Shown here: positions 1 to 57,543 of the stretch, piece by piece
Numbering within the stretch: the stretch's first letter is position 1
Layout of the letters: every line of letters starts with the position of its first letter
Translations under genes and position numbers: made by a program
The notes under the pieces: generated by a model
Seen by the model: the letters and a program-made list of their open reading frames with translations, nothing else
What the model was told of the DNA's origin: nothing
The model's database searches: none
Virus record (IMG/VR): IMGVR_UViG_3300015245_000007
Location: 1 to 63,889 of that record
Direction: 5' to 3' (one strand)
Length of the DNA stretch: 63,889 nt
Origin: a virus

Positions 1-306
1 TACGCCGGCGCCAGCGCGAAGGACGACGAAGCCAAGATCAAGCTATTGCGCACGACGGTGCTCGGCAAAGACAAGGCGGAAGTCGTCGGCGCGGTCGCGA
101 AAATGAAAATCGTCGGCCTGACGAAAAGCGCGATCGAAAGCGGATACGACAAGGCAGAGCAGCGCGTCGACTGGTACGGCAACCCGAATAGCATTTGGGG
201 TTTCAACGGTGGCCTGACTGAAGTTGCGCGCGACCTTCCGAACGGTGACGAGCGCAACGTGCTCGAGCTCGCCGCCGGCGAGATCATGGAGAAGGTCGCG
301 GCCTGA
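1..306 (+). CDS. DUF932-family protein, C-terminal segment (ORF wraps the circular junction; N-terminal part is 63031..63889)
   Basis: Frame open from base 1 to TGA 304-306; bases 1-22 equal 63868-63889 and keep the frame (..LVRYAGASAK|DDEAKIKLL..). Confidence 0.8.
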   Translation, partial: YAGASAKDDEAKIKLLRTTVLGKDKAEVVGAVAKMKIVGLTKSAIESGYDKAEQRVDWYGNPNSIWGFNGGLTEVARDLPNGDERNVLELAAGEIMEKVAA

Positions 307-316
307 TCATCACCTC

Positions 317-387
317 TTGCGCCGGCGGCATGCGGTCGCCGGCGCAACGGGAGGCGATGGGCCTCGGGACTTTGGGGAGGTTTTGAA
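317..387 (+). promoter_or_regulatory. promoter/5' leader element, divergent copy D of a 4-member family
   Basis: Perfect 11-bp stem TTGCGCCGGCG/CGCCGGCGCAA (317-347), second hairpin GAGGC-GATGG-GCCTC (351-365), SD GGGGAGG, ATG 388; same layout as 58069, 58851, 62631. Confidence 0.5.
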
Positions 388-852
388 ATGGCGATATTCG
401 AATCGACATATGTTGAGCCCACAGTGCCGTGCAAGCACTGCGGCACGCCGACCACGTTCACCAGCACGTGCGAATGCAATCGATGCTGGATGCTGCGGTC
501 CCGCGTCGAAAGCGATGTAACGCTGGCGCGCCGGTTCCTCGACGCGAAAGTGCCTCCGGCGCCCGCGCCCGAACCGCTCGACAGCGCAGAGCTGGCCGCC
601 GTTCTTGCCGGCCTGCGCATGATCCAGCGCCGCGGTGTCGACGTCGAGGTGATGGACATTTTCACCGAGGCCGGCGCGCACGACGGTCTTAACGATGACG
701 AGATCGATGCGCTTTGCATAAAGCTGGACGGCGCGGAATCGACCGTGCCGGCACAAGAGCGCATCGACGAATTGACCGCGCAGCTCGAGGCGCTCGCCGC
801 AGAGCAGGCAGACTTGAACCTCGAGGCCAAAGAGTTCGGAGAAAAGCCGTGA
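388..852 (+). CDS. hypothetical protein with N-terminal Cys-rich (zinc-ribbon-like) segment
   Basis: ATG with GGGGAGG SD upstream; CKHCG...CECNRC; acidic helical C-terminus; 154 aa. Confidence 0.7.
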   Translation: MAIFESTYVEPTVPCKHCGTPTTFTSTCECNRCWMLRSRVESDVTLARRFLDAKVPPAPAPEPLDSAELAAVLAGLRMIQRRGVDVEVMDIFTEAGAHDGLNDDEIDALCIKLDGAESTVPAQERIDELTAQLEALAAEQADLNLEAKEFGEKP

Positions 853-944
853 TCAAAATCGCACTGCAGGAAATCGCCGCCGCGCTCGCGATCGGCGCTT
901 TCATTCTCGCAATCGCGGTCTGGGCTATCGCGCTATACCCATGA
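849..944 (+). CDS. possible small single-TM membrane protein (31 aa)
   Basis: GTG overlapping upstream stop (GTGA); hydrophobic IAAALAIGAFILAIAVWAIALY. Confidence 0.3.
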   Translation: MIKIALQEIAAALAIGAFILAIAVWAIALYP

Positions 945-1020
945 ACGAGAAAACCGCGGCGCTATGAACGCCGCGGCCTTCTCAACTCTCAACGCGCACA
1001 CGACACGACAGGAACCAGCG

Positions 1021-1698
1021 ATGTCTTACGTTGAAGGTGGCGACAAATCAAGGGCGCTTTCGCCCGCGCAACGCGCCTGGATCACGCGCCGCGCTCGAGC
1101 GGCGGCCGATGGCCAGGTCTATGCGCCGGCGCCGCGCGCGTCGTCGAAACGAAACGCCGCGCTCGAGGCGTTCGAGCTCGAGGCCAGCCAGGCAATGCCC
1201 GACTGGCACGCGGTCGCGCTGAAGCTTCGCGCCGCGCTCGAGCCGGCAAGCTCGCCGGCTGGCATCGCGGTAACGCGCCAGACGCCCGAGCTGCTCGCGA
1301 TCGCCGCGCCGCAGCTCGCCGACTATCCGGTGACCTGGCGCCAGGTCGACCTTGGGCCGGTCATCGTCTGCAGCTTTGCCGACGGCGAAATCGTCCGCAT
1401 GTCTTTCGCCACCGCAAAGGGCAAGCCGCTCAACATCGCGCGCGGCGTGCGCGTCGCGATCGCAGCCTATCGCTTTCGAATCGCCCGCCGGCGGTTCGGC
1501 TCGTCGCGCCTGCTGGCTGCAAGCGGCTGGATTGATGTCCCGCCGATCGCGTCTTGCGCCGTCACGCTGGACAACCACGCGCGCCAGGTGAAGTTTGATG
1601 CCGAGCTCGTCACCACGGTTTCGGCTCAATGGCGCTCGGCGATCGCCGACGCCGAGATCCCGCTCGCGATCGAAGACCACACAAAGGAAACGCCATGA
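1021..1698 (+). CDS. hypothetical protein carrying N-terminal SPAQRAWITRRARAAA motif
   Basis: ATG 1021 preceded by CACAC..AGGAACCA box (the same box precedes ATG 63031); ATGA overlap with next gene; upstream alternative start 964. Confidence 0.65.
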   Translation: MSYVEGGDKSRALSPAQRAWITRRARAAADGQVYAPAPRASSKRNAALEAFELEASQAMPDWHAVALKLRAALEPASSPAGIAVTRQTPELLAIAAPQLADYPVTWRQVDLGPVIVCSFADGEIVRMSFATAKGKPLNIARGVRVAIAAYRFRIARRRFGSSRLLAASGWIDVPPIASCAVTLDNHARQVKFDAELVTTVSAQWRSAIADAEIPLAIEDHTKETP

Positions 1699-2102
1699 CC
1701 GCGCAAGCCGAACGATTCCACGCCAGCGAGAACCGCGGCCTGTTCCTGGTGCTGATGACCGCTTGCGGCCAGACCGTGCGCGACGTCGCGCAGCTCACCG
1801 GCAACTTAGAGCGCACCGTCAACCGATGGATCGCCGGCCGGTGGGACGTCCCGGCCGACGTCCTGCAGATGCTCGAGCAGCTCGACTTCACGATCGAGCA
1901 TCACGCGATCGCGATACTTGCCGACATGCGGGCCGGAATCTGTCCGCCGACCATGGCCATCACCCGCGCGCCTGGTCCGGTCCCCAATCTGCGCAAGCTG
2001 CCCGAGCTCCCGAACCCCGCGGCCCTGCTGGCGGTCGCCGCCAGGGTCCGCGCCTTCGGTCCAGACCTGGAAACCCGGGTAACGTTTTTGGCCCTGGACT
2101 AG
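1695..2102 (+). CDS. helix-turn-helix DNA-binding protein
   Basis: ATGA coupling to upstream gene; GQTVRDVAQLTGNLERTVNRWIAG looks like an HTH. Confidence 0.6.
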   Translation: MTAQAERFHASENRGLFLVLMTACGQTVRDVAQLTGNLERTVNRWIAGRWDVPADVLQMLEQLDFTIEHHAIAILADMRAGICPPTMAITRAPGPVPNLRKLPELPNPAALLAVAARVRAFGPDLETRVTFLALD

Positions 2103-2223
2103 GGTTTCTCCGGCTGGCCAATCGCCGCCAGGCGCGCCACCATGCGCCCGGCGGCCTTCCCGGCTACCCTCATACGGCCGGACCCAGGAAAACGCGCCCA
2201 CGGGCTTTAAAACCGGTTTCCAG

Positions 2224-2322
2224 TTTGGGAACTTTACCGGGAACGATTGCCGGGAACGAGGCGGGAACGCCGGGAACGATTTTCCCTAACCATCGATAAT
2301 CGCAAAAGCAAATCGTTCCCGG
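2224..2322. repeat. iteron cluster 1 (CCGGGAACGAT family)
   Basis: Forward copies at 2237-2247 and 2270-2280 (exact), variants at 2250-2260 and 2261-2270, inverted copy ATCGTTCCCGG 2312-2322 abutting the helicase stop; 10-13 bp spacing. Confidence 0.75.
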
Positions 2323-4305
2323 TCAACTTTGGTCCCACGGCAAGAGCTCGTCATCGATCGGCTTAAGCACCGGTGCCGGAGGATAGCCCGCAACCTTTCG
2401 ATCGGTGCGCCAGACCCAAGGGTAATTGACGCCGATCAAACGGAACTCGGCGCCTTGCAGCTTGCCCATGGCGAACTGTATCGCCTTTTTGATGCTGTCC
2501 GCCCGCTTGCCCGGATCATCACCCGCATAGGCGCCAATCTCGCGCATGGCATCGGCCCAATGGTCACGGTGAACCGCCCATAGATCGCGCGGCAGACCGG
2601 ATTCGCGCGGCGCCTGCCCGCCCTTGGTCATCAGCGCCTTTTGCAGGCCAGAGAACGCAAGGCGCAGGCGATCGCTGCGGATCTCAAACCCCGGATCGAT
2701 TCTCTTTTTCGGCTCGCCGACGGCCGGCGCGGTGAACAGCTCGCCGGTCGAGGGCGCCTCGACGGCGCAGGACGTGATGTCCTCCCCGTCCTCATCAGTG
2801 CCGAGGACGACTTGCTTGAGCACGAAATCCCATGACACCCCGTCCGCGCCCTCGCGCTGCTTGTCGAGCCCGGCGGACCGCACCTCGCGCTTGTTCTGAT
2901 CAAAGATCGGCTCGCCGGTGCGCGCGACCTTGATCATCGTTTCAAAGTTGTCACCGAGGCTGGTGTGGCCGCGCATGGTTCCGCCGGCATTGACGTGATG
3001 GACGAGCCACAAGCCGCACTTGAATTCGTGGCGCACGCGGTCGATGCGATCGATGATGATTGCGACGTCTCTGCCGCTGATCTCGTCGGCGCCGGACGTC
3101 GCGCGGTTATAGGTGTCAATGATGACAACCTCGATCGGCAGGCTGAAGTGCGCTGCTATGCCCCGGAGCTCTTCCATCAGCATCGTCACGCCTGCATCGT
3201 CGCGGAATAGATTAAACGGCTTTGTGATGCACACGAACGGGATGCGCTCGCCCTTGGCCATGCCGTGCGCGAGCTCATAGGCCGGCATGCGCACGTCGAC
3301 AAAACCTTCCTGCGCCTCGACCGCGCAGTAGACCACCAGGCCAGACTTTACCTTGCGCCCGAAATACTCGAGGCCCCGGGCGATCGACATCGCCATATCG
3401 AATACCAGGAAGCTCTTGCCCGATTGGCGCGCACCATAGATGAGCACCGTCTGCCGGCGCGGAATGATCCCCTTGATCGTCCATTCGTAGCGCGGTCGCG
3501 GCCGATGCATGTTTTCCCAGAACACCGCCCCGAGCTTGGATTCCCACGGCTGCGCCGGCTTGTCCGGAACCTCATCTAACGCGCCGTCATCAAGCTCGCC
3601 GCGCGCGATCTCGGCCGCCTGGCGCACATCACGCGCCCAATTGCGCGCGATCAGGACCGCGTCTTCGTCGTTATCCGGGACATAGGATTCGGCCACAACG
3701 CGCGCGATGTACTGCGATAGCGTCAGATCAGCGACCTTGGGCCGTCCGGTCTCGCCGCCAAGCGCCGCGATCAAGACCGGCAGTTTTAGCTCATAGCCTT
3801 TGTCCGCGGCGTCCCAGAACACATCGAAAATATCGGCGTGAAGGAAAAAGGAAAAATCGCTGGCGCGCACCTCTTCCAGCACCGCATCGATGAGGCCAGG
3901 TTGGGTCGATCGCGATATCAAAAGGCCGATGAGCTCGCGCTCGCTATCATCAGGCGCCGGCATTTGCGTCCGTTCGCCTGGGGCGGATCCTGGCTCCGCG
4001 GTCTGCGCGATCGTCACCAGGTCGCCGGCATGATCGGCGCTCGAGCCGTTCGATTTTTTCGGCGATCGCAGCATCAGCCAGAAATATCGCGTGTCGTCCG
4101 ATACGCTGGCGACATGCTCGGCGAGCTGCTCGGCGCCGCCTCCGATCTCCTGGATGTAGTCGAACCACCGCGCGAATTCGGTGTCGACCTTGATGACCGC
4201 GTCGGGGCCGAAATAGAGTTTCGTTGCGGTGGACTTTTCGGCGTTCGGTTCGCCCATCAGGCGCCGCGCCAATTCCTCAATAGCCGGTGTTGCCCCTTCG
4301 GGCAT
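2323..4305 (-). CDS. replicative helicase-like protein (DnaB-N-like region + RecA-fold AAA_25/RepA-type NTPase)
   Basis: Walker A YGARQSGKSF, LVVYCAVE, GLWLVHHVN; DnaB-N-like ERELIGLLIS..FLHADIFDVFW; ATG 4305 with GAGGGG SD (GTG 4332 alternative). Confidence 0.7.
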   Translation of the reverse strand: MPEGATPAIEELARRLMGEPNAEKSTATKLYFGPDAVIKVDTEFARWFDYIQEIGGGAEQLAEHVASVSDDTRYFWLMLRSPKKSNGSSADHAGDLVTIAQTAEPGSAPGERTQMPAPDDSERELIGLLISRSTQPGLIDAVLEEVRASDFSFFLHADIFDVFWDAADKGYELKLPVLIAALGGETGRPKVADLTLSQYIARVVAESYVPDNDEDAVLIARNWARDVRQAAEIARGELDDGALDEVPDKPAQPWESKLGAVFWENMHRPRPRYEWTIKGIIPRRQTVLIYGARQSGKSFLVFDMAMSIARGLEYFGRKVKSGLVVYCAVEAQEGFVDVRMPAYELAHGMAKGERIPFVCITKPFNLFRDDAGVTMLMEELRGIAAHFSLPIEVVIIDTYNRATSGADEISGRDVAIIIDRIDRVRHEFKCGLWLVHHVNAGGTMRGHTSLGDNFETMIKVARTGEPIFDQNKREVRSAGLDKQREGADGVSWDFVLKQVVLGTDEDGEDITSCAVEAPSTGELFTAPAVGEPKKRIDPGFEIRSDRLRLAFSGLQKALMTKGGQAPRESGLPRDLWAVHRDHWADAMREIGAYAGDDPGKRADSIKKAIQFAMGKLQGAEFRLIGVNYPWVWRTDRKVAGYPPAPVLKPIDDELLPWDQS

Positions 4306-4359
4306 TTTTCTTATCCCCTCGACGTGCCCCACGCACGCGCCGCAGCTTCGCGCGACTCG

Positions 4360-5058
4360 CTATCGCTGCGCAACGCGAACGCTTCGTGAACCTTGTTTTT
4401 TCGGTAGCTGGTTAAAGGCGATGACTCCATGCGTGCGATGAAGCCAGAACGGTACCGGCGGGCCTATGTGGCCGCGCTCGAAAACGAGATAGACGAAATC
4501 GTTTGTGCCGCCTGTCGTCTTGCCGCCGTTGGTGATGACGTGCCCGGGCGGCATCGATGGCCGCGGCGTGAGATAGTAGATTCGCGCGAGCGGAAGAAAG
4601 GGCAGCCAGTTGTGCGCGGCGTTGAAACGCCTGGCTGGCATCACGACGCAGCACTTGCGCTTCGTGAGCTGCACCGCATGCGCAACGAACTTTGCCAGAA
4701 TATGAAACGGCGGATTGAAAACCATGTTGGCCGCCGGCGTCGTGACCTTCATAAAATCGCGCTTGCCGCCGAACTTGCGAAAACCTCGATCGACGATATC
4801 GGTCCCGATCGCCGAGAGACCCGCGGCGATCGCCGCCTCGACGACGCGGCCGAAGCCGCAACACGGATCATAGATCGGACCCTCGAATGTCTCGGCCTTG
4901 AAGAAAGCGACGTTGACCCAGGTCGGTTCTACGTAGTGGCCATCTTGCTCAGGCTCCCAGGATTGCGCCTTGAGCGGGTTTGCTTTCTTGCCTCGATGCA
5001 AATGCCGCTGCGAGTGGCGTGTTGGTTTTCGTAGCAGTCGGCCGGCCCGCACAGTCAT
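4360..5058 (-). CDS. N6-adenine DNA methyltransferase (small, phage type)
   Basis: Motif I DPCCGFGR and motif IV NPPF; ATGA overlap with upstream RuvC-like gene. Confidence 0.7.
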   Translation of the reverse strand: MTVRAGRLLRKPTRHSQRHLHRGKKANPLKAQSWEPEQDGHYVEPTWVNVAFFKAETFEGPIYDPCCGFGRVVEAAIAAGLSAIGTDIVDRGFRKFGGKRDFMKVTTPAANMVFNPPFHILAKFVAHAVQLTKRKCCVVMPARRFNAAHNWLPFLPLARIYYLTPRPSMPPGHVITNGGKTTGGTNDFVYLVFERGHIGPPVPFWLHRTHGVIAFNQLPKKQGSRSVRVAQR

Positions 5059-5567
5059 CGTCGCGCCGCCATGCCGAGCAGGCCCATATTGAAGCGGCTC
5101 ATCATGTCGGGGACTTTCGCAACCAGCGAATAAGCCCAGATGCCGAAGGCGTCGGCCTCATGCTCATTCGTTGCCGCAACGCCAAACATGCGCGCGCAGG
5201 CAATGCGTTGTGCCGGCTCTGCGTTGCCGCGTCCGGTAAAATACTTTCGCGCCGTCTGCACGCTCACCTCGGTGCATGCGATCGCGCGCCTCGAGCATGC
5301 TTGCTCCGTCACATTGCACAGCCCGATCAGCTTGCGCGACGTCGCGAGGTTGGATTTATTGGAGAGGAACGGCGCTTCGAACGCGACCAGCGCCGGCTTG
5401 CCGTAGTCCAGCATCATCTCGAACCAATCGGCATAGGCATTGAGATAGCGCCCGACGTCACGTCCGGTTTCGGGAAGCGTGAATGTTCCCGTCAGCGGCG
5501 TTTCATCGGGCGCGCCGAGGCACCAGCCCGCGAATTTTGCGAGATCCAGGCCAATGGCTTTTCGCAT
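5055..5567 (-). CDS. ruvC: RuvC-like Holliday junction resolvase
   Basis: N-terminal IGLDLAKFAGW and C-terminal EHEADAFGIWAY acidic motifs typical of the RuvC fold; 170 aa. Confidence 0.65.
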   Translation of the reverse strand: MRKAIGLDLAKFAGWCLGAPDETPLTGTFTLPETGRDVGRYLNAYADWFEMMLDYGKPALVAFEAPFLSNKSNLATSRKLIGLCNVTEQACSRRAIACTEVSVQTARKYFTGRGNAEPAQRIACARMFGVAATNEHEADAFGIWAYSLVAKVPDMMSRFNMGLLGMAARR

Positions 5568-6124
5568 CAGTGCGGGAGCTTCGAACCAGGCGGCTTGGGC
5601 TCATCGCCCCGCATGCGCACCACCGAACCGCCGCGTATGCTGTCGTCAATCGTCTTGTTCTGCTCGGCAAGCTTCTTTGCCCATTCCTCCCGCGGCATGC
5701 CGGGCGGGGGCTGCTGCTCGGGGGACTCGACCGCACCCGTCGCGGTCTGGTCTGCGCCGCCTTCGCCGCCTTCGTCGTTATCACCCCCGCGCTCGCCGGC
5801 CTTGCGCTCGCTCTGTTCGGCCCTTGCATCGGCGAACATGTCTTGCGGACAGAGATCGTCTAGCCCGACCTTTATGCGCGCGTCGTCAAACGACTCGAGC
5901 CAGGCATAGAGCGCGGCGCCGTCCATCTTGCGCAGCTTCTGCATGATCTTGGCAACGCCGCGGTGGATGTTCTGGGTTTCTTCGGCCGTCTTGACCAGCT
6001 CGCCGAGCGATCCGGTTGCTGATTGAGCCTTCGCTTTGAAGGCGTCCATCTTGTCGAGATGTTTCGACCAAGTGTCTGCACTCGGCAGCTTCGTTGGTGT
6101 TTTCGGGCTCGCGCGTTCTGCCAT
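5567..6124 (-). CDS. hypothetical protein (acidic, low-complexity centre)
   Basis: ATG 6124 with AGGAG SD 9 nt upstream; TGATG overlap with ruvC-like start. Confidence 0.6.
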   Translation of the reverse strand: MAERASPKTPTKLPSADTWSKHLDKMDAFKAKAQSATGSLGELVKTAEETQNIHRGVAKIMQKLRKMDGAALYAWLESFDDARIKVGLDDLCPQDMFADARAEQSERKAGERGGDNDEGGEGGADQTATGAVESPEQQPPPGMPREEWAKKLAEQNKTIDDSIRGGSVVRMRGDEPKPPGSKLPH

Positions 6125-6373
6125 GGCCTGGCGCTCCTGTTCGAGGTGACGCGGGTACGCGGTGTAAGACGCCGGCCGGGTGACAAACTTGGAAGAAAGC
6201 ACCCGGCCGGACGCTGCGCATGGCCGGTGGGGACCATGCGCCGCAACCGTTCGCGGGGACTATGCGAGGGCTGCGGAGAGCCAGCGTGACGCCGAATCGC
6301 TTCGGGCGCCAGCATCAGGCAAAAGGAATGTTGAAACGTCCCCATTTTGAACGCCGCCCCACGCGGCGCGGTA

Positions 6374-6640
6374 TCAGGCAGATTTCTTCAGCTTTGCCGG
6401 CCGCTGCACACCGAGCGGCCAATTCTCGCCGGCCGGCCAGTTATCGCCGAACCAGCGCAAGGCTTCGTCGTACTTTTCGACATTGAAGCCGCCTGTCTTG
6501 ATGCGATCGAAGAACTTCCAATCGCCCGTGGCTTTCTCGCCGATCGTCGCCGTGCTCTTGCCCGTGGCGGAGCAATAAGCACTCGAGAGCGCGACAAGAT
6601 GGCTGCGGAGAATTTCGGTCTGTGACGTCGGTTTACCCAT
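6374..6640 (-). CDS. hypothetical small protein, first gene of leftward early operon
   Basis: ATG 6640, 88 aa, non-repetitive composition; divergent from XRE gene. Confidence 0.55.
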   Translation of the reverse strand: MGKPTSQTEILRSHLVALSSAYCSATGKSTATIGEKATGDWKFFDRIKTGGFNVEKYDEALRWFGDNWPAGENWPLGVQRPAKLKKSA

Positions 6641-6686
6641 GGGGCGGGACGTTAGCCGATTTAATTCGGTGCGGTCAAGATTAGGG

Positions 6687-6715
6687 TTGCCCTACCGAAA
6701 ATTCTCGGCATAATG
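6687..6715 (+). promoter_or_regulatory. sigma70-like promoter of rightward early operon
   Basis: TTGCCC (6687-6692), 16-17 bp spacer, CATAAT/ATAATG (6709-6715); followed by hairpin GGTTGC-gtggg-GCAACC (6722-6738) and SD GAGAGGGA. Confidence 0.5.
6695..6708. promoter_or_regulatory. candidate operator, imperfect palindrome CCGAAAATTCTCGG inside the promoter spacer
   Basis: CCGA-N6-TCGG, 12/14 self-complementary; same half-sites recur at 56339, 56541, 58859, 62639. Confidence 0.5.
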
Positions 6716-6754
6716 CGCCCTGGTTGCGTGGGGCAACCTGAGAGGGACATTCAC

Positions 6755-7165
6755 ATGCAACGCGAAAAGGCGCGCGGCGCCACCATTGATCGGGCCTATT
6801 TGGTCCAGATCGGAAACCGGCTCAGAGCATCGCGCATGCAGAGAGGCATTTCCCAAAGTGCGCTCGGCAAGCTACTCGACGTCACCTTTCAGCAAGTGCA
6901 AAAATACGAGAAGGGCACCAATCAAATGCCGATCTCGTCAATCCGCCAAGCAGCGAGCGGTCTTGATACCACCGTTTCCTATCTGCTCGGCCTCGATGCC
7001 GAGCAGGCCGCGGCGAGCAAGCGTCAACTCGCAATCGAGCGTATCGATAGCGTTCCGCACGGCCAGGCTGCCCTCGATACACTTTGGAAGTTGACCATAG
7101 TGCCCGATCACGGCCGCGAGTTCGCGCGTCTTTGCCGGATCATCGCGGCTTTCATCCAAGAGTAA
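6755..7165 (+). CDS. XRE-family HTH transcriptional regulator (repressor candidate)
   Basis: ISQSALGKLLDVTFQQVQKYEKGTNQMPISS is a classic HTH_3 pattern; ATG 6755 behind SD GAGAGGGA. Confidence 0.75.
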   Translation: MQREKARGATIDRAYLVQIGNRLRASRMQRGISQSALGKLLDVTFQQVQKYEKGTNQMPISSIRQAASGLDTTVSYLLGLDAEQAAASKRQLAIERIDSVPHGQAALDTLWKLTIVPDHGREFARLCRIIAAFIQE

Positions 7166-7194
7166 TCCACCCGAACATTAAGGGAGACCGATAT

Positions 7195-7548
7195 ATGACT
7201 AACGCGAATGGAAACGACGCGCCGCTCGGCGCGCGCACCGGCCAACAGCAGGAAGAGCAGAAGCGCAACGAACTGACCAATGTCGACGCGATCACCAATC
7301 ATGCCAGCGGCGTATTGGAAAACGTCGCGGTGGCGACCGTCCAGCAGATCGATTCACTTATCGGCAGGCTGCAGGCGATGCGCCTCGAGCTGCTCACCGA
7401 TGTCGCCCGGGTTCGCGCCACCATCCGGGGCCACTTGACGCTCGCCGATCAATTCGGCGCGTCGGTGAATATCATCGGCGAGAGCATCGATAAGCTGCGC
7501 GCCGACAATGCGCGCCTGGTCGACAACGCCAAACATGAGGAAGCATAA
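7195..7548 (+). CDS. hypothetical protein (helical)
   Basis: ATG 7195 with AGGGAG SD at 7181-7186. Confidence 0.6.
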   Translation: MTNANGNDAPLGARTGQQQEEQKRNELTNVDAITNHASGVLENVAVATVQQIDSLIGRLQAMRLELLTDVARVRATIRGHLTLADQFGASVNIIGESIDKLRADNARLVDNAKHEEA

Positions 7549-7551
7549 GCC

Positions 7552-8898
7552 ATGATGGGCGATTTTGACGACGTCCCGCAGCAGGCCGCGCCGCCGCCTG
7601 CAGGATCATCGCGCGGTGGCGAGGTGTTGCCGCCACTGCCGGAAAACCTGCCCGCCGTCATCACAACCGACGTCGTGTTGGCCGAACGGCCGGTCATCAC
7701 CGCGCAGCTCGTCTATCAACCCGGCGGACCGGAGGCGATCATTGCCCGCCTCGAGGCCGAGGTGCGCGCCTTCAAGGGCGACATTTCAACGGAGAAGGGG
7801 CGCGGAGAAATCAAGTCGCTCGCGCACAAGGTCTCGCGCACCAAATCGCTGCTCGACGAAATGGGCAAAGAGCTGACGGAGGGATGGAAGAAAGCCGCGA
7901 AGGTGGTCGACGTCGACCGCAAGAAAATCCGCGATCGCCTCGATGCGCTGCGCGATGAAGCGCGCAAGCCGGTCGACGATTGGGAAGAGTACGAGGAAAA
8001 ACGGATTCAGGGTCACCGCGATGCGCTCACGGTCCTCGAGGATCTCGGAGTCTTCACGTTCGGCGACGATGCCGAGCCGACAGCCAAGATGGTTCACGAT
8101 CGCATCGCAGTGATTGAGGAATTGCCGGCGCGCGACTGGCAAGAGTTTTCAACTCAGGTCGCCGATCGCAGGGCCGCTCTGCTCTTGAACCTTGGCGGCA
8201 TGCTCAAGCGCGCCCAGAAACGCGAGTCAGACGCTGCGGAGCTCGCGGAGCTGCGCCGCCAACAGGCGCAGCGTGCGGCCGATGAAGAGGCAGCGCGCGC
8301 CGCAGCCGAAGCCGCGCGGATCGCGGAAGAGCAGCGCCTGGCCGCCGAACAGGAAGCGGAGCGCGTGCGCCTCGCCGAAGAGCAGCGCCAGCGCGAAGAA
8401 GCCGAGCGCATTCGCGTTGCGGCCGAAGAGGCGCGGATCGCTGCAGAGCAAGCCGCCGCCGCGGAGGCCGAGCGCGTGCGGCTCGCCAATGAGACCGCCG
8501 CCCGCGAAGCGGCGGAACGCGCCGAGGCCGCGCAGGCCGAACGCGATCGCGTGGTCGAGGCGGAACGTCAGCGCCTCGAGCGCGAGCGCGTCGCGGCCGT
8601 CGAAGCGCAGCAAGCCGCGATCGCGAAAGCCGAAGAGAATCGCATCGCCGGCGAGAAGGCCGCGGCGGCGGCGGCGCAAAAAGCGATCGACGACGAACGC
8701 GCGCGCGTTGCCGCTGACCAAGTGCGCGAGAACCAGGCTGCGCTCGATCGCGAGAAGAACAAGCAGCACAACGCGAAAATCAACGGCGAGGTTCTCGCCG
8801 CGCTCCAGCAGCACGCGGGCCTGACGAAAGACGGCGCGAAGGCCGTCGTCGTCGCGATCGCGCAAGGCAAGATCGCTCACACCAAAATCAGTTATTGA
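7552..8898 (+). CDS. coiled-coil protein (DUF1351-like N-terminal half, TolA-like E/A/R-rich repeats)
   Basis: 448 aa; sits directly upstream of exonuclease/RecT as DUF1351 proteins do; EAERVRLAEEQRQREEAERIR.. repeats. Confidence 0.5.
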   Translation: MMGDFDDVPQQAAPPPAGSSRGGEVLPPLPENLPAVITTDVVLAERPVITAQLVYQPGGPEAIIARLEAEVRAFKGDISTEKGRGEIKSLAHKVSRTKSLLDEMGKELTEGWKKAAKVVDVDRKKIRDRLDALRDEARKPVDDWEEYEEKRIQGHRDALTVLEDLGVFTFGDDAEPTAKMVHDRIAVIEELPARDWQEFSTQVADRRAALLLNLGGMLKRAQKRESDAAELAELRRQQAQRAADEEAARAAAEAARIAEEQRLAAEQEAERVRLAEEQRQREEAERIRVAAEEARIAAEQAAAAEAERVRLANETAAREAAERAEAAQAERDRVVEAERQRLERERVAAVEAQQAAIAKAEENRIAGEKAAAAAAQKAIDDERARVAADQVRENQAALDREKNKQHNAKINGEVLAALQQHAGLTKDGAKAVVVAIAQGKIAHTKISY

Positions 8899-8899
8899 A

Positions 8900-9097
8900 A
8901 TGATGAAATGGACCTGGCGCGCCGCCGACGCGATCGCCACCGCAACGCCCGGCAGCGTCGCCATTGAAACCGGCAAGGCGACAATCCTCATGACGCCCGA
9001 CGCCGCGGAGGCGGTCGGCGCGATGATGATTGCCGCCGCCTACGTCTCCCGCTCGATGCAGACCACCGTTCCAGAGGAAAAGAAATCCGATGCCTGA
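8900..9097 (+). CDS. hypothetical small protein
   Basis: ATG 2 nt after upstream stop; 65 aa; 8-nt overlap with exonuclease start. Confidence 0.45.
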   Translation: MMKWTWRAADAIATATPGSVAIETGKATILMTPDAAEAVGAMMIAAAYVSRSMQTTVPEEKKSDA

Positions 9098-10040
9098 CCC
9101 AACACGCGAGTCAATCTCCGCGACCGAAACGCCGGCGCTCTTTAACGCCTCGCCCTATCTCACGAAGCGCATGCTGTACGAGCGCATTGCGAACGGAGTC
9201 GATATCGACTCCCCGGAAAACAACCGCATGGATTGGGGCAAGCGCATGCAGGGCGTCTTGCTGCAGGCAGCGGCCGAGGATCACAAGCTCGACGTCCTGC
9301 CGAACATCGGATCGGACGGAAAGGAAGTCTATATCCGCCGCGGCCGCATCGGCTGCACGCGCGATGCCGTGATCATCGATCCGCAGCGCGGGCCTGGCGC
9401 GCTGGAAATCAAGATGTGCAACGACTATCGCGTATGGCGCGAGAGTTGGGGCTCGGGCGCCACTCCGCCGCGCCACAACGAAGTGCAGCTTCAGCAGCAA
9501 ATCATGGTCGGCGATGGCGTGACGCCATTCACCTGGGGACTGCTCGGCTGTTGGATCGCCGGCGAAATGAAATACTGGAAGCGCGAGCCGATGCCACGCC
9601 TTTGGGCGCAGATCGAAAAAGAGACGACGCAGTTTTATGAGGACGTCGCCGCCAAGAAGGCGCCCGATTGGATCGGCGACCCGGTGGAAATGCCGCTGCT
9701 CACCGAGCTGTTCCCGCCGCGCTTCGCGAAGGTGACGGACTTCACAACGCGCGATGACGCCGAGAAGCTCGCCGAAAAGTGCCTGATGCTCAACTATCAC
9801 AGCAAAGAGCGGCTCGGGCACGCGAAGGCCGAAGATAAATTGAAGGCGGAGTTGCGCGCGCTCCTGCTCGATGCCGAAGAAGGCCGCTTCATTCACGGGA
9901 TCAAGTTCACCGTCAAGCAGTCCGACCGCAAGGGCTATATGGTCCCCGCCGGCAAGACGACGCGCACCGATCTGTATGTGCCGGACGACGTGCCGCGCGG
10001 CAATATCGCTAAAGACTTCACCGCAGACCTTGGAGGCTGA
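9090..10040 (+). CDS. YqaJ/lambda-Exo-like recombination exonuclease (PD-(D/E)xK)
   Basis: ETPALFNASPY..MDWGKRMQ..ALEIKMC pattern; immediately upstream of RecT. Confidence 0.65.
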   Translation: MPDPTRESISATETPALFNASPYLTKRMLYERIANGVDIDSPENNRMDWGKRMQGVLLQAAAEDHKLDVLPNIGSDGKEVYIRRGRIGCTRDAVIIDPQRGPGALEIKMCNDYRVWRESWGSGATPPRHNEVQLQQQIMVGDGVTPFTWGLLGCWIAGEMKYWKREPMPRLWAQIEKETTQFYEDVAAKKAPDWIGDPVEMPLLTELFPPRFAKVTDFTTRDDAEKLAEKCLMLNYHSKERLGHAKAEDKLKAELRALLLDAEEGRFIHGIKFTVKQSDRKGYMVPAGKTTRTDLYVPDDVPRGNIAKDFTADLGG

Positions 10041-12440: not shown

Positions 12441-14354
12441 ATGAACGATACCACCATCAGCTCTGATCATCTCGCGCCCATCACCACGACGCATGCAAAA
12501 CTCGCCGGCGGCAATATGGTGCTCTCAGTCCCGCTCACCGACCTGGTGCTAGGTCACGAGCTAAACCCGAGCATCAATGCGCGGATCGGAGATCCCAACG
12601 AAGGCGTGCCGGAGCTTGCAGCGCTCATCAAGGCGAACAACTGCAAGCTTATTCAAATGCCAATCGCCAAGCCGCTGCCGCGCAACCGCGGTACGATGGC
12701 AACGCAGCAATATGGCGTCTTTGCCGGCAACCGGCGCGCCGGCGCGCTGCGGCTGCTCGCCAACGAGGGCGCGATCGCGAAAGACGAAATGATCGACATC
12801 GTCGTGCGCGATGTCACCGACGCCGAAGCGCTCGAGATTTCACTCGCCGAGAATGTCCATCGCCTGCCGCCGCATCCGGTCGACCAGTTCGAGACCTTCG
12901 TGCGCCTCATCGCAGAGGGCATGAACGTTGAAGAGATCGGCACGCGCTGGTGCATGAAGGAAAAGATGGTTCGCCAGCGCCTGGCGCTCGGCAATCTCTC
13001 GCCCGTGCTCCGCAAATTGCTGCGCGACGACAAGATGAACCTTGGCCAGGCGCAGGCCTTCACGATCGAGCCGGATCACGCGGCGCAAGAGCGCATTTTT
13101 AAATTGTTGAAGGGAAAGTTCGGCGGTCACTTCGGCGAGGGCCAGATCAAATACGAGCTGACCAAGGGCGGCAATCAATCCGCCGCGCTGCTCGAGTTCG
13201 TTGGCCGCGATGGATACATCGCCGCCGGCGGCACCGTGAAGGCCGATCTCTTCGCCGAGGCGCAATATCCCGACGACATTTCGCTTTTGAACAAGCTCGC
13301 CGATGGTCGGATCGAATCCAAGCGCGCCGAGCTGCTCGAGAACGGCTGGTCGTTCGTCGCCGACGAGATGAACAACGAGCCGGGCATCAGCCCGCATTTC
13401 ATAACGCAGATCAAGGTGCGCCCGGTTTACACGCCGCAGCAGGTCGGAACGCTCTCCGAGCTCGAAAAGAAAATGAAGCCGCTCAATTACCACGACGAGC
13501 GCGCGATCAAGCTGCGTACACAGGTCGAGGACATCAAGACGGCCGGCACGCTCGCGGCCTATACCGAAAAGCACAAAAGCGAATCCGGCTGCTGGCTTTC
13601 TTTCAATCGCCATGTCGGCCGCCTGGATATTGTCTATGGCGTGAAGGATCCACGCAAAGAGCCGAAGGCGTCGAAGAGCGCGCGCGCCGGCGCGGGCAGC
13701 TCGCTCTCAAGCGCAAAGCCCAAAGACCCCAATGCGATCAGCCAGAATCTCGAGAAGCAACTCGCCGTGCAGTTCACGGCGGCGATTGCGAAGGTGGTCG
13801 AGGGCGATTCGCAACTCGCACTCTGCGCGCTCATCGCCGGTTTTATGGCCGGCGGCTTTAGCGGCGATCCAGTGCGCGTGCATCACGACGGCCGCGGCAG
13901 CTTCGCCAATCGCGACGACGGCGCCGCCAAGAAGGATTTCAAGTTTTACTTCGCGATGGCGCAGAAAAAGAAACCTGCGGAACGTCTCGCGATCCTGGCG
14001 AAGATCGCCGGCGGCGCGCTCTACCTCGATTGCGCCGACCGGCCTGAATACGACGACGGCGCCACCGAGGCGTTGATCAGGGCTTGCGACGTGAAGCACG
14101 CGCGCGAGGCGATCGCCAGTTCGATCGATTGGAAAATGTATTTCGCCGGCATCAACAAGGCGCAGGCGCTCGAGGCAATCGAGGTTGCGCTTGGCGCCGG
14201 CGAAAAGCAGCGCCTTGCCAACAAATCGAAGCTTGAGGTCGAGGCCGCCGCGATCGCCAAGGTTCCGGCGACCAAATGGCTCCCGCGGGAGTTCCGGACG
14301 GTTCACTATGACGGCCCGGTGGAAAAGGCCAAAAAAGCCGGTTCCAAGAAATAG
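12441..14354 (+). CDS. large ParB/Srx-domain protein (ICE/plasmid-type ParB-like)
   Basis: GNRRAGALRLL, ALEISLAENVHR, HTH EEIGTRWCMKEKMVRQRLAL; 637 aa; no parA partner seen. Confidence 0.7.
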   Translation: MNDTTISSDHLAPITTTHAKLAGGNMVLSVPLTDLVLGHELNPSINARIGDPNEGVPELAALIKANNCKLIQMPIAKPLPRNRGTMATQQYGVFAGNRRAGALRLLANEGAIAKDEMIDIVVRDVTDAEALEISLAENVHRLPPHPVDQFETFVRLIAEGMNVEEIGTRWCMKEKMVRQRLALGNLSPVLRKLLRDDKMNLGQAQAFTIEPDHAAQERIFKLLKGKFGGHFGEGQIKYELTKGGNQSAALLEFVGRDGYIAAGGTVKADLFAEAQYPDDISLLNKLADGRIESKRAELLENGWSFVADEMNNEPGISPHFITQIKVRPVYTPQQVGTLSELEKKMKPLNYHDERAIKLRTQVEDIKTAGTLAAYTEKHKSESGCWLSFNRHVGRLDIVYGVKDPRKEPKASKSARAGAGSSLSSAKPKDPNAISQNLEKQLAVQFTAAIAKVVEGDSQLALCALIAGFMAGGFSGDPVRVHHDGRGSFANRDDGAAKKDFKFYFAMAQKKKPAERLAILAKIAGGALYLDCADRPEYDDGATEALIRACDVKHAREAIASSIDWKMYFAGINKAQALEAIEVALGAGEKQRLANKSKLEVEAAAIAKVPATKWLPREFRTVHYDGPVEKAKKAGSKK

Positions 14355-17240: not shown

Positions 17241-18563
17241 TCAGCCCATGAGCTCGGTGACCTTGTGCTGCGACCACAGCACGCCGCCATAGGCCCGATT
17301 CCCCGTGATGCCGTTGAGAGTCATCGTGCCGGCGATATCTTTCCCAAGCCTGACTTTGAACGTCGTCTGCGCGGTCGACATCGCCAACTGTTGATATTCT
17401 CCGGTCAGATTGAGCGGCGTCTCGCCGCCGGTCAGATCCCATTGCCAGACGGCCGAAAGCGCATCTACGATGTTGTCTTGAAACAGCGCCGCCGCAACCC
17501 TCGGAGAAGAGGCGCCGCTGGTCGGGGCACTGCAACGCAGAACGTATTCGTTTTGCAAAATGTTTACTGGCGACTTCGGCGTGATGTCCCTTGAAAAAAA
17601 CTGAGTCCCTTCGTTGTTCTGCGGAATCGTGTCGTCATAGGGCATAATGGTCGTTCCGGTCGCGACGGCCGCGGACCTGATCAATGTCGTCTGAACGATG
17701 TCGCCGGGCTTCTTCACACCAGGCCCAAAGAGTTGCACGCCATCCGGCGCAACATTATAGACGCCGGCCGTCGCGAGCCCGCTTGACCATTCGACATACC
17801 CGAGAATGCGAAACGGCTTGTTCGTGACCGCGACACCCGAATAGGCAACGCCGAGGTTGTCAGCGGCACCGGCGCCGCCTTCGGCCGTGGTGCTGGTCAC
17901 TCCATCTTCGGAGAGGGGATAGATCGCGAGCGCATTTGAACAATTCTTCGCCGCCAGCCGCAGCGTGCCCGCGTCGTCGATCAGCTCGAGCCAGACGCGG
18001 AATGGCGTCGCATTGATCGCGCCGAGTGTCGATCCGTTGGAGATGACCAGAGACAGCGGCGCCGTGATCTGGCGATAGGCAACCGCGCCACCGTAAAAGG
18101 CCGGATTGCGGAATGACGCCACGATCGGATTGAGCGGAGACGGATCATCACCCGACAATGTCTTGAGCGCGATCGTGAGCGCGTTCGCGTTCACTGACTG
18201 AGTGATCAGGACGTTCGCCAGGTCCTGGGCGGCGCTATTGGCGTACACGACGCGGCATCGCGTGCCATCATTCGCACCCAGCGGATACCAGTCGCCGAAG
18301 TTTGCGGAGAGATCACGAGCTCGCGCCCAATAGAAATACGTGGCGCCCTCGACGACAGAGGCATGGATTGCAGCGTTACGGGCCTCGACGATCTTTATGG
18401 CTTGTGCCCGATCGTTGACGGTCGCTGCCCATATCTCGACCTGGTCGAGCTGGAGCGACGTCGAGCCGCTCACATTGGGGTCGGTCGCCTGCCACGATAA
18501 CGAGACGTGACCGAACTCGTTGATCGGCTGGAGAGCCTGAACATAAATATTCGAGACGGCCAT
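17241..18563 (-). CDS. tail fibre / receptor-binding protein (FN3-like N-terminus)
   Basis: 440 aa; N-terminus resembles the gpJ C-terminal FN3 region (VSLSWQA..YFYWARARD); position in fibre cluster. Confidence 0.55.
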   Translation of the reverse strand: MAVSNIYVQALQPINEFGHVSLSWQATDPNVSGSTSLQLDQVEIWAATVNDRAQAIKIVEARNAAIHASVVEGATYFYWARARDLSANFGDWYPLGANDGTRCRVVYANSAAQDLANVLITQSVNANALTIALKTLSGDDPSPLNPIVASFRNPAFYGGAVAYRQITAPLSLVISNGSTLGAINATPFRVWLELIDDAGTLRLAAKNCSNALAIYPLSEDGVTSTTAEGGAGAADNLGVAYSGVAVTNKPFRILGYVEWSSGLATAGVYNVAPDGVQLFGPGVKKPGDIVQTTLIRSAAVATGTTIMPYDDTIPQNNEGTQFFSRDITPKSPVNILQNEYVLRCSAPTSGASSPRVAAALFQDNIVDALSAVWQWDLTGGETPLNLTGEYQQLAMSTAQTTFKVRLGKDIAGTMTLNGITGNRAYGGVLWSQHKVTELMG

Positions 18564-41234: not shown

Positions 41235-42875
41235 TCACGCTAGACGCCCGTCGAGATTTCCCGCCGCGATCGCCGCCGCCTTCTTTGCCATTTCGGCCTG
41301 TTGCTCGCGCATGAAGTCGAGGTACCCGCGGCCCTTGAAGTTCGGGTTCGCATAGGCCAGCACCAGCGCATCCCAATCGTCGGGCGACGGGATTTTATCG
41401 GCGATCATGTCCTCTTTGGACTGCATGAGAATCAGGCCGCGGCTTGTCGTCTCGTATTTGATAACCGCCGCCTGGCCTGCGGTCTCTTCGTCCTTAAGGT
41501 CGATCTCGCCGGCTACGAACATATCGCGCACGGCCCAATTGATTTCGGCTTTTAGGTTCTTGAAGCGCTGTTTTTCCTTGGCGCCAAAGCACGGCGCGCC
41601 GACATTGACCGGGACCACGACGAACGACGGCAGGCGTTCGGGATCATCCGGCCTCTTGAGCTTATCCTCGCGCTGCATCTCGAGCAGGCGGTCCGTCACG
41701 CCGCCGCCGAGGCCTGCGTCATCGATCTTGACCCGCGTTGCCCCGGTCGCCCGCACCGCGATGACGATCCGGCCGACGACGTGCATCAGGTCGCGCTTGC
41801 GGAATTTGTCTATCTTGCGCGCGACGGCGCCGCGCCTGTGGAAAATCACCGTCGCGTTGCCGTTCTCCGATCGCGCGACGTCAACGCCGAGCTCGTTCGG
41901 ATCGGTCGGCGGCAGCTCTTGCGCGAGCGCGGCCGTGATGAAGCGCAGCGGCACCAGGCCGCCCTCTGCCTGGTCGGGAAATTCGCCCTTGACCTTCGAT
42001 GACCAGAACGGGTGATCTTCGCCCCAATCTTTGCGCTTCTCTTCGACCCAGGTGCGCGACACCAGCAGCGGGCTAAGCCAATCGGGGACCGCCTCGCCAG
42101 TGAAGTTCGGACTTTCGAAAGCATTGATGGCGATGTGATTCCAGCCAGAGCCAGGCAGCGAGACGTGGCGGAATTGGGTATCGGGATCATCCGGATTGCC
42201 GATCGCCAGGATGCGCGCGTCATCGTTCGCGATCAGCGTGTCGGCCGCATTCCATATTGTCTTGTCGACGCCACAGGCCTCATCGAGCAGCACCAGCACA
42301 TAGCGCGCGTGGATGCCCTGAAACGCCGTCGCATCCTTTGGGGCCCGGCCGAAGCCGACCAGCTCGTTGCCGAAGAACCATTCAATCTGGTTGACCTTGC
42401 CCGGAAGGTGGGCGGCCTTGTGAATGCGGTTGATCTCGCGCCAGAGCAGCGCGCGGACCTGGGCATAGGTCGGCGCCGTCGAGACGACGAAAGCCTCACC
42501 AGGCTTGTGACTCGAGAGCCACCACGCCGCGATGCCGGCGGCCACATACGTCTTGCCGACATCGTGGCAGGATGTGACGACGGTGCGGCGGTTATCGCGG
42601 ACGGAAAGACAAATCTGTTTCTGCTTGGACCACAGAACCCCGCCGCAACCCTTCTCGATGAACCCGACGGGATCGGCGGCATAGATGCCGAAGCGGTTGG
42701 CCTCGACGTCTTGCTCAATGCGTTGTCGCGCCTCCATCAGCTCGCGCAGGCGCTTGAGCTTCGCCACCACTTCCGGCGTCGCCGGCAGGCTGTTGACCAG
42801 CTTCTGCCACTGACCGCTCGAGCTGTCGGATGGCTCTGTCAAGATCCTCGACTGTTGGGGTGAGGAATCGGTCAT
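41235..42875 (-). CDS. terL: terminase large subunit
   Basis: Walker A-like SCHDVGKTYVAAG, LVLLDEA Walker B, nuclease half; start uncertain (ATG 42875 overlaps terS by 161 nt; ATG 42737 alternative). Confidence 0.75.
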   Translation of the reverse strand: MTDSSPQQSRILTEPSDSSSGQWQKLVNSLPATPEVVAKLKRLRELMEARQRIEQDVEANRFGIYAADPVGFIEKGCGGVLWSKQKQICLSVRDNRRTVVTSCHDVGKTYVAAGIAAWWLSSHKPGEAFVVSTAPTYAQVRALLWREINRIHKAAHLPGKVNQIEWFFGNELVGFGRAPKDATAFQGIHARYVLVLLDEACGVDKTIWNAADTLIANDDARILAIGNPDDPDTQFRHVSLPGSGWNHIAINAFESPNFTGEAVPDWLSPLLVSRTWVEEKRKDWGEDHPFWSSKVKGEFPDQAEGGLVPLRFITAALAQELPPTDPNELGVDVARSENGNATVIFHRRGAVARKIDKFRKRDLMHVVGRIVIAVRATGATRVKIDDAGLGGGVTDRLLEMQREDKLKRPDDPERLPSFVVVPVNVGAPCFGAKEKQRFKNLKAEINWAVRDMFVAGEIDLKDEETAGQAAVIKYETTSRGLILMQSKEDMIADKIPSPDDWDALVLAYANPNFKGRGYLDFMREQQAEMAKKAAAIAAGNLDGRLA

Positions 42876-46748: not shown

Positions 46749-47135
46749 ATGTCCGACGAAACAGCGCGCCCCACGGCCACCAAAACCAGGCAATTCCCCG
46801 TCGACGTTTTGACGCCAGGCGCCAAGCGCCGGCGCCTCGAGCTCACGATGGCGCCGGTACCGGCCTATGCGGAGCTCGCCGCCAAGGTCGCGCCGCTCAT
46901 TGGCGGCTCAATCGAGCACGTGCGCATATGGGACAAGCACCAGGAAATTTACGCCTCGATGTTCGTCGACGAGCAATCGATTTCCAAGGGTCTGCCGCGC
47001 AACGAGGCCGCGACCAAGATTTACCGCGCGAACATGATCGCGCACTCGAAAGACCCCCGCGCCAAGCTCGACCCCGAGCGCCTGCCCGCCATCTATGGCG
47101 CAGCCGTCGTTTTCAAATGCAATGTCTGGCGTTGA
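46749..47135 (+). CDS. hypothetical protein
   Basis: ATG 46749 with GGAG upstream; 128 aa. Confidence 0.5.
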   Translation: MSDETARPTATKTRQFPVDVLTPGAKRRRLELTMAPVPAYAELAAKVAPLIGGSIEHVRIWDKHQEIYASMFVDEQSISKGLPRNEAATKIYRANMIAHSKDPRAKLDPERLPAIYGAAVVFKCNVWR

Positions 47136-47184
47136 CGTTTCCGCAATCGCCGAATATCTTCGGTACATCACAGAGAGGTGCACC

Positions 47185-47580
47185 ATGGGACGCAGGCCGA
47201 GCCTGACAGACGAACAGAAAGATCTGATCGCGGAATTGCGCGAGGGCCGCGGGTGGTCCTACGCGCGGATCGCCATCAAGCTCAAGATCGCCGAAGGTTC
47301 GGTCTCTTGGTATTGCTTGAAGCAAGGCATCGAGAAGCCAGGCCGCAAAATTCCGGTCCTGCGGCAACCGCAAACAAAGCCCTTCACCCGGCACGGCCGA
47401 ACGGTGCGGCCATTCTCGCCGGAAGAGGACGCGAAGATGCTCGAGCTCTCCGCCGAGGGTCTCAAGCCAGCGGCGATCGCGCGCGCGCTCGGCAATCGCC
47501 GACCGAACAGCATCACCGGCCGGCTCTACACGCTGGCGCGACACCAGGACCGCGCGGATGCATCCCAGGGAATAGGATGA
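47185..47580 (+). CDS. DNA-binding protein: Hin-like HTH + GcrA-like segment
   Basis: GWSYARIAIKLKIAEGSV HTH; FSPEEDAKMLELSAEGLKPAAIARALGNRRPNSITGRLYTL resembles the GcrA N-domain; AGAGAGG SD. Confidence 0.5.
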   Translation: MGRRPSLTDEQKDLIAELREGRGWSYARIAIKLKIAEGSVSWYCLKQGIEKPGRKIPVLRQPQTKPFTRHGRTVRPFSPEEDAKMLELSAEGLKPAAIARALGNRRPNSITGRLYTLARHQDRADASQGIG

Positions 47581-56830: not shown

Positions 56831-57127
56831 ATGATCAGCGATAGCGCCAGCCGTCTCGGCCTCTTGCCCTATGAGCGCGTCGTGCTCGAGGTGTTCTGCA
56901 TCAACGAGCCTCTATGCCGCCGCGAGGTGCACCAGCTCGCCGGCTACTCCGAGGGGACATGCAGTCGTGCCATGGCGAAGCTTCGGCGAATCGGGTTGCT
57001 CGAGCGAACGCAGTTCGGGCGGTTCAACTGTCCATGGACGGCGACCGATCGCGGCAAGATCGCGTTCGCCCTCATCGCCGGTCGCGAATTGATACGGCGC
57101 AATGCGCGCCGCAGACAGCCCGCATAA
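56831..57127 (+). CDS. MarR-like winged-helix DNA-binding protein
   Basis: LLPYERVVLEV..REVHQLAGYSEGTCSRAMAKLRRIGLLER; GAGGGA SD. Confidence 0.55.
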   Translation: MISDSASRLGLLPYERVVLEVFCINEPLCRREVHQLAGYSEGTCSRAMAKLRRIGLLERTQFGRFNCPWTATDRGKIAFALIAGRELIRRNARRRQPA

Positions 57128-57482: not shown

Positions 57483-57543
57483 CCGGGAACGATCGCAAAA
57501 ATCGTTCCCGGCAATCGTTCCCGGTTCCCGAAATCGTTCCCGG
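57483..57543. repeat. iteron cluster 2 (CCGGGAACGAT family)
   Basis: Forward copy 57483-57493 and inverted copy 57501-57511 form a palindrome around CGCAAAA; more inverted copies at 57514-57524 and 57533-57543, partial TTCCCG 57525-57530. Confidence 0.8.

Follow-up and report, generated by a model that had tools for sequence, protein, structure and literature searches.

Two clusters of short repeats as a probable replication origin system read by a DnaB-type helicase in a metagenomic tailed phage

Described origin systems and how the phage locus compares

Replicative helicases of the DnaB family generally need a separate initiator and a separate loader, such as DnaA with DnaC or DciA, or the O protein of phage lambda with P. 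To our knowledge, the self-loading initiator-helicases that have been described (P4 alpha, SaPI Rep, viral SF3 helicases and MCM-like proteins) all belong to other superfamilies. In iteron plasmids (P1 incC/incA, F, RK2 and pPS10), phased direct repeats adjoin an AT-rich region, extra clusters outside the origin serve titration or handcuffing, and inverted copies serve autoregulation. Plasmid Rep initiators are dedicated winged-helix proteins that recruit host DnaB via DnaA and DnaC, whereas in the phage genome described here the helicase itself is proposed to be the reader of the repeats. The ATPase family of this helicase, AAA_25/RepA-like, also includes RSF1010 RepA and the mycobacteriophage “RepA-like helicases”, for which we know of no C-terminal domain of the type reported below. 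The window analysed in this study is a whole metagenomic contig of 63,889 nt, and its two repeat clusters can be compared with several of these systems. According to a passage in one source, the iterons of RSF1010 are bound by a separate protein, RepC (PMC4234260).

The closest described layout is that of satellite P4, in which the alpha protein binds the origin repeats through a C-terminal winged helix (PMC4234260). In the annotated P4 record, the alpha gene (4636-6969, minus strand) is followed by a terminator and then, directly 3', by crr (4291-4590) with ten type-1 repeats, and six more type-1 repeats are found in ori (9086-9809), which is approximately 4.7 kb from crr. Repeats occur in mixed orientation at both crr and ori. 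Like P4, the window has two clusters of one short repeat that are in mixed orientation and kilobases apart, one directly 3' of a helicase gene and the other in a distant non-coding region: cluster 1 (2225-2322) abuts the helicase stop codon, and cluster 2 (57483-57543) is located about 8.5 kb away across the contig junction, if the assembly is circular. Also, the P4 initiator is itself the helicase, as we propose for the window. However, P4 alpha is a Toprim primase joined to an SF3-type helicase, whereas the window protein combines a DnaB-N-like domain with an AAA_25 ATPase (SF4/RecA-type). The repeats are unrelated (TGTTCACC in P4 versus CGTTCCCGG in the window), and P4 is an 11.6-kb satellite whereas the window is a 64-kb tailed phage. 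With Pfam and hhalign, neither a Toprim domain, an SF3 domain nor an alpha-type winged helix was found in the window protein, and its C-terminal domain showed no homology to the C-terminus of P4 alpha (hhalign probability 0.1).

A second parallel is provided by the SaPI elements. SaPI Rep is a self-loading helicase whose C-terminal winged-helix domain reads iterons of 5-6 nt; these follow directly after rep, flank an AT-rich centre and point in opposite directions on its two sides, and no loader is involved (PMC9371898). Cluster 1 has the same anatomy beside the helicase stop codon, with five forward iterons, a 31-nt AT-rich spacer and one inverted iteron at the stop codon (five versus one). 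In contrast, the SaPI Reps are relatives of the SF3/MCM groups among the AAA+ helicases and their origin is a single locus, whereas the window protein has an SF4 ATPase (AAA_25/RecA-type with a DnaB N-domain, rather than the AAA+ SF3/MCM-like type) and the window carries a second, distal cluster. As the layout is shared but the ATPase differs from both and the C-terminal domain shows no homology to that of alpha, these comparisons point to a P4/SaPI-like way of working without membership in either family.

Repeat clusters in the phage genome

The contig ends in a 22-nt terminal direct repeat (1-22 and 63868-63889), which suggests that it is a circular assembly. Judged by eye, the sequence over the contig junction reads as one plus-strand ORF. 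Two further assemblies of the same phage (L005 and L006, 99.99-100% identical to the window) break at window coordinates 1 and 25; as they are nearly identical to the window, they were uninformative on variation. The genome is that of a tailed phage, with genes for the large terminase, portal, tape measure, tail, baseplate hub (phiJL001 Gp84/BR0599 type) and endolysin. It also encodes RecT, YqaJ, a RuvC-like protein, two DNA methyltransferases, a RadC-like JAB protein, an XRE-type HTH protein (6755-7165) and a ParB-like protein. No integrase, transposase or ParA was found in approximately 70 window ORFs scanned and, given that no integrase was among them, the phage may be either a plasmid prophage or virulent. 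No close cultured relative was detected (megablast of positions 1-8000 against cultured phages gave no match), and tblastn matches of the helicase among cultured phages were only 24-35% identical. Relatives of the helicase are present in Bradyrhizobium chromosomes, and from this sequence affinity the host is likely to be a soil alphaproteobacterium. We found no tRNA genes in the window, and no Rfam families at the gathering threshold, with sub-threshold noise only in the cluster 2 region. GC skew showed no interpretable switch and no origin signal. Similarly, there were no DnaA boxes near either cluster of the window (four one-mismatch matches versus 3.4 expected). Elsewhere, three imperfect direct repeats at 8296-8465 (plus strand; 53-nt copies with 51- and 66-nt spacing) are located within ORF 7552-8898, which codes for a protein of 448 aa, conserved but of unknown function (PHROG 1376), whose gene is syntenic in two of the relatives discussed below (L001 and L003).

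An earlier note on this DNA had described a 220-bp non-coding gap between an HTH gene and the 3' end of the helicase gene, with four forward copies of an 11-mer at 2237, 2250, 2261 and 2270 and one inverted copy at 2312-2322. The gap and all five copies were recovered at these positions. The HTH gene (1695-2102, plus strand) converges with the helicase ORF, and the 220 nt between its stop at 2102 and the helicase stop codon (2323-2325) contain cluster 1, a non-coding array (2225-2322) whose last base directly precedes that stop codon. Its distal arm (2225-2280, plus strand) consists of five forward CCGGGAACGAT-type iterons: a degenerate copy, TTGGGAACTTT, at 2225-2235 (7/11 matches), which is a sixth member of the cluster and was absent from the earlier list; an exact CCGGGAACGAT at 2237-2247; a copy with one mismatch at 2250-2260 (10/11); a copy with 8/11 matches at 2261-2271, in which the 7-mer core CGGGAAC is intact; and a second exact CCGGGAACGAT at 2270-2280. 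The start-to-start distances of these copies are 12, 13, 11 and 9 nt, which places the forward iterons roughly on one face of the helix. The proximal arm is the single inverted iteron (2312-2322, minus strand), which is exact and ends one base before the helicase stop codon. The two arms are separated by an AT-rich spacer of 31 nt (2281-2311), which contains ATCGCAAAA and is a candidate DNA-unwinding element; the 40-nt segment 2279-2318 has a GC content of 0.38 compared with 63% for the genome, and is among the roughly ten sites of lowest GC in the genome.

Cluster 2 is located at 57483-57543, also non-coding and where the earlier note had placed a second cluster of the same 11-mer, and holds four exact copies and one partial copy in mixed orientation. 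A forward iteron (57483-57493, plus strand) is separated by a 7-nt spacer, CGCAAAA, from three inverted copies (57501-57511, 57514-57524 and 57533-57543, minus strand), with the partial iteron GTTCCCG at 57524-57530. The flanking sequence was likewise said to be shared, and indeed ATCGCAAAA occurs at both clusters (2299-2307 and 57492-57500), preceding an inverted copy in each. Besides, the clusters are joined by a perfect 24-nt inverted repeat (2236-2259 and 57502-57525). Short direct repeats near helical spacing in non-coding DNA, of which iteron origins have at least three, are thus found in both clusters (five forward in cluster 1 and four inverted in cluster 2), and an AT-rich unwinding region adjoins them at cluster 1; cluster 2 has only the 7-nt spacer, with AT-rich patches 300-550 nt away. 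These patches (57836-57875 and 58080-58119) rank among the six 40-mers of highest AT content in the genome, and both belong to the stretch of approximately 1 kb without coding signal (57128-58165) that hosts cluster 2. This stretch follows a small wHTH gene, the “MarR-like” ORF (56831-57127, with Met 56831 as the most plausible start; 98 aa, weak wHTH), and the RadC-like gene probably starts near 58166. A lone CCGGGAACG is found in the same stretch, outside both clusters, at 58038-58046, where a TTGACA precedes it by 16 nt. The stretch further contains a GC hairpin whose T-tail is weak (57785-57802). Although the 11-bp inverted repeats of the clusters can themselves fold into hairpins, no T-tract was present on either strand and a terminator scan found none at the clusters; a terminator function was rejected because no T-tract follows the hairpins.

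The distribution of the repeat is not that of a chance motif. The earlier note had suggested counting exact and one-mismatch 11-mers across the genome, and in this count all seven exact copies of CCGGGAACGAT were inside the two non-coding clusters, which additionally hold one copy with one mismatch and three degenerate copies. At up to one mismatch there were 10 matches, compared with 2.07 expected, and none of 100 shuffled sequences reached 10. Beyond the clusters, only two one-mismatch matches occurred (40262 and 53899), both in coding sequence and equal to chance expectation. The 7-mer core was not enriched genome-wide (16 copies versus 11.6 expected), and 11 of the 16 copies were within three non-coding places. 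The two clusters are the only sites in the genome where five or more copies of any 7-mer are found within 100 nt, a density of five copies per 100 nt that was seen in none of 40 Markov-simulated genomes. Chance is therefore excluded as the source of the clustering.

Helicase relatives and the C-terminal domain

We compared the gene neighbourhoods of seven relatives; their helicases share 37-45% identity with that of the window. The relatives were obtained through a protein homology search, followed by retrieval of the contigs encoding the homologues; a locus-level search with the helicase in viral and genome contigs confirmed no relatives. In five independent lineages, the start of a short-repeat array coincides with the helicase stop codon or is no more than about 15 nt from it, and the motif is lineage-specific: GTCCCGG, GTCCCTGT or GTGACA. 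At this position, L001 and L002 have seven copies of GTCCCGG, L003 has six copies of GTCCCG(G), L008 has four copies of TGTCCCTGT with 21-nt spacing, and L009 has three copies of GTGACA. In L004, three copies of GTGACA, the first of them overlapping the stop codon, are followed by a 40-nt AT-rich stretch and three more copies. In most relatives, a distal second cluster is also found in non-coding DNA (17832-17885 in L001, 8965-9014 in L008, 9604-9621 in L009 and 5136-5151 in L004), so that the combination of a stop-codon array with a distal cluster is conserved across diverged relatives. The two clusters are in direct, not inverted, relative orientation in L001 and L008. No array was found at the helicase stop codon in L007 and in L128, a Bradyrhizobium erythrophlei prophage; each of these carries four ATGTCCC copies in a long non-coding region, next to DNA that is strongly AT-rich. 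Among the genes, only the helicase is common to all these loci. The HTH gene of the window (1695-2102) has no counterpart at the loci of the relatives, and its product showed no similarity to the proteins encoded downstream of the L001 and L003 arrays. A motif that varies by lineage while its position is kept is what would be expected from a co-evolving pair of protein and DNA site.

Several additional features were observed at these loci. In the L001 locus (21.9 kb), GTCCCGG occurs 27 times versus 3 expected, with approximately 13 copies beyond the two clusters and some of them in coding sequence; this dispersed motif could reflect a broader DNA-binding role. L001 also has a perfect DnaA box, TTATCCACA, at 17916-17924, about 30 nt from its second iteron cluster. 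Since no equivalent was found near a cluster in the window or in the other relatives, the box is not a feature of the family. Strong GC hairpins are present in the non-coding regions with distal iterons of the window (~57770-57790), L003 (~4470-4495), L007 (~1770-1795) and L128 (~3660-3690). The sequence CTAAGAGCGC is common to the hairpins of the window and L003, and in L007 and L128 a GGGGCC-loop-GGCCCC hairpin is located just before the AT-rich stretch and the iterons. These hairpins could be terminators or conserved elements. A separate scan of viral contigs for CGTTCCCGG-N(1-14)-CGTTCCCGG gave at least 117 loci, of which only one had a helicase match, a weak one (L092, 24% identity), and it proved a dead end. 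In the loci with four or more copies, most distances between copies were divisible by 3, so that these may be coding repeats.

The putative initiator-helicase of the window (2323-4305, minus strand) has 660 aa as called, and the longest ORF extends to 4332. A DnaB-N-like domain (3685-3954, minus strand) precedes an AAA_25 RecA-type ATPase (2989-3543, minus strand) with an intact Walker A motif, GARQSGKS. Pfam detected the AAA_25 domain (E = 1.2e-30), a weak match to the DnaB N-terminal domain and nothing else, and the profile of the helicase family matched the N-terminal domain of solved DnaB structures (6bbm, E = 1.9e-4). No primase domain was detectable in the protein. Its last ~100 residues form a separate domain that is conserved family-wide and follows a variable, flexible linker. 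At E-values up to 10, Pfam gave no match for either the N-terminal 126 aa or this C-terminal domain. In a library of 1.84 billion representative proteins, the C-terminal domain was found in 1,407 clusters at 50% identity, in nearly every case as the C-terminal part of a helicase or primase-helicase body 420-1,100 aa long. The domain, which in the window helicase corresponds to 2323-2736 (minus strand), is also found among the 1,407 clusters as stand-alone proteins of 110-190 aa; these may represent fragments of genes, or separate regulators with the same fold.

The C-terminal domain (2407-2673, minus strand), our proposed iteron reader, has a predicted winged-helix topology: an AlphaFold2 model (pLDDT 83, core above 90) has the element order H-S-H-H-S-S, which is that of a winged helix. 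Foldseek against the PDB with this model yielded no significant match (best E = 1.1). The weak matches were mostly winged-helix domains (Rok, cullin WHB, BaeR, ORC WH and BlaI), and no Rep structure was among the best 50 PDB matches listed. A fold search of BFVD returned uncharacterised homologues only, and PDB sequence searches with the profile of the domain and with the whole helicase gave no match covering it. The domain is thus predicted, from topology only, to be winged-helix-like, and may plausibly bind DNA. Across relatives, its putative recognition helix groups by iteron type. A residue that is Arg in 90% or more of the family is Phe in the window helicase alone, and the window alone uses GTTCCC in place of GTCCC. 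This pairing of recognition helix and iteron is suggestive, confounded as it is by phylogeny and with the Arg-to-Phe change being a single case.

Alternative readings and proposed mode of initiation

The earlier note had left three functions side by side for the clusters: origin iterons, partition sites, or multi-site binding for a recombinase or regulator. From the sequence comparisons, the first of these is strongly favoured by the stop-codon arrays in the relatives of five lineages, the AT-rich centre of cluster 1 and the predicted winged-helix-like domain, and the others lost ground, since no ParA, integrase or transposase was found in the approximately 70 ORFs scanned, the HTH gene is not conserved and cluster 1 lies between convergent 3' ends, a place where a promoter would not be expected. 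Taking these observations together, we consider it probable that the two clusters are the iterons of a phage replication origin system and that they are read by the phage's own helicase, which is the best supported binder among the candidates of the earlier note. Our best reading is a two-part iteron origin with a self-loading initiator-helicase, in which both the binding and the origin activity are inferred.

Of the other readings, we regard as unlikely, but as the strongest competitor to be weighed, the one in which the repeats are operator or titration sites of a separate phage regulator and act in transcription rather than in replication initiation. Candidate regulators are the HTH protein (1695-2102), the wHTH protein (56831-57127), the XRE-type protein (6755-7165) and a further HTH protein (47095-47580). 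Indeed, a small HTH or wHTH gene is found upstream of each cluster, cluster 2 and the lone copy at 58038 are upstream of the RadC-like operon, three motif copies are located in the divergent promoter region of the helicase operon in L003, and the L001 motif is dispersed well outside its clusters. However, the promoter-proximal copies are also compatible with autoregulation by an initiator, which is known for iteron plasmids, and cluster 1 itself, between two convergent 3' ends, has no promoter-like site. One identical motif is found in both clusters, but the two small HTH proteins are not related to each other. Beside the arrays of the relatives the HTH gene lacks a homologue, and the position at the stop codon is conserved while neighbouring genes change.

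Still less probable, in our view, is that the clusters are centromere-like (parS-type) sites of the ParB-like protein, serving maintenance of a plasmid prophage. This protein (12441-14354, plus strand; 637 aa) matches the ParB HTH domain with a score slightly over the Pfam cutoff (23.2 versus 22.6 bits) and ParB_N below cutoff, and has PHROG ParB-like matches; its long C-terminal part matches PHROG 7783, a family of unknown function. P1 parS consists of multi-copy sites in mixed orientation around an AT-rich spacer, which the clusters loosely recall, and the failure to find an integrase in the ~70 ORFs scanned would also suit a plasmid prophage. On the other hand, no ParA-type ATPase was found among the ORFs scanned, and a parA-parB operon with an adjacent parS is not seen in the window, where the clusters are ~10 kb and ~19 kb from the ParB-like gene. 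Besides, it is the helicase stop codon that the array follows, and no ParB-like homologue was present in the retrieved flanks of array-bearing relatives (the syntenic position in L001 is occupied by an RNase T gene). Sites of recombination, transposition or packaging, such as transposon-like ends, integrase arm sites or terminase-binding pac/cos repeats, are very improbable. The mirror-image clusters, linked by the 24-nt inverted repeat, and the breaks of three assemblies near window coordinate 1 would fit such a role. However, the breaks are 2.2 kb from cluster 1 and inside coding sequence, and the TerL gene (41235-42875) is 15-25 kb from either cluster. Neither a transposase nor an integrase was detected in the ORFs scanned, and the clusters of L001 and L008 are in direct orientation, unlike paired transposon ends or integrase arms.

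Returning to the reading by the phage's own helicase, initiation could proceed as follows. The helicase would recognise CGTTCCCGG-type sites via its C-terminal winged-helix-like domain and oligomerise on the phased array beside its own gene. It would then unwind cluster 1 at its AT-rich 31-nt spacer, towards which the iterons converge, and load itself there, with no separate loader, and its DnaB-like N-domain would probably recruit host primase. In this scheme the binding of the repeats by the C-terminal domain, melting and loading at cluster 1, and the role of cluster 2 are all inferred. By analogy with P4, where ori and crr cooperate, the second distal cluster may work with the first as a partner element, possibly by looping; or it could be a titration or handcuffing site that limits initiation. 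Alternatively, given the ParB-like protein and the failure to find an integrase in the ORFs scanned, the second cluster might determine copy number if the phage lives as a plasmid prophage. Autoregulation, as in iteron plasmids, could in addition come from the CCGGGAACGAT-N7-ATCGTTCCCGG palindrome of cluster 2 and from the lone site that precedes the RadC operon.

What these data point to is not a new principle, but a P4/SaPI-style initiator-helicase origin that appears to be built on a DnaB-type helicase with a previously undescribed C-terminal domain. We suggest more tentatively, with somewhat less than even confidence, that the ~1,400 clusters represent a family of DnaB-type (SF4, AAA_25) phage and prophage helicases that are self-loading initiators, with a novel winged-helix-like origin reader and with iterons at their own stop codon. 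If a DnaB-like helicase does read its own iterons, it would represent an independent evolutionary route to the fusion of initiator and helicase. In many uncultured phages of alphaproteobacteria and in Bradyrhizobium prophages, origins could then be predicted by a simple rule, namely, to check the helicase stop codon. Natural variants in specificity (GTTCCCGG, GTCCCGG, GTCCCTGT and GTGACA) offer material for studying co-evolution of a protein and its DNA site, and compact replicons for soil alphaproteobacteria are possible. The family is apparently widespread, and in it a DnaB-like helicase may find its own origin.
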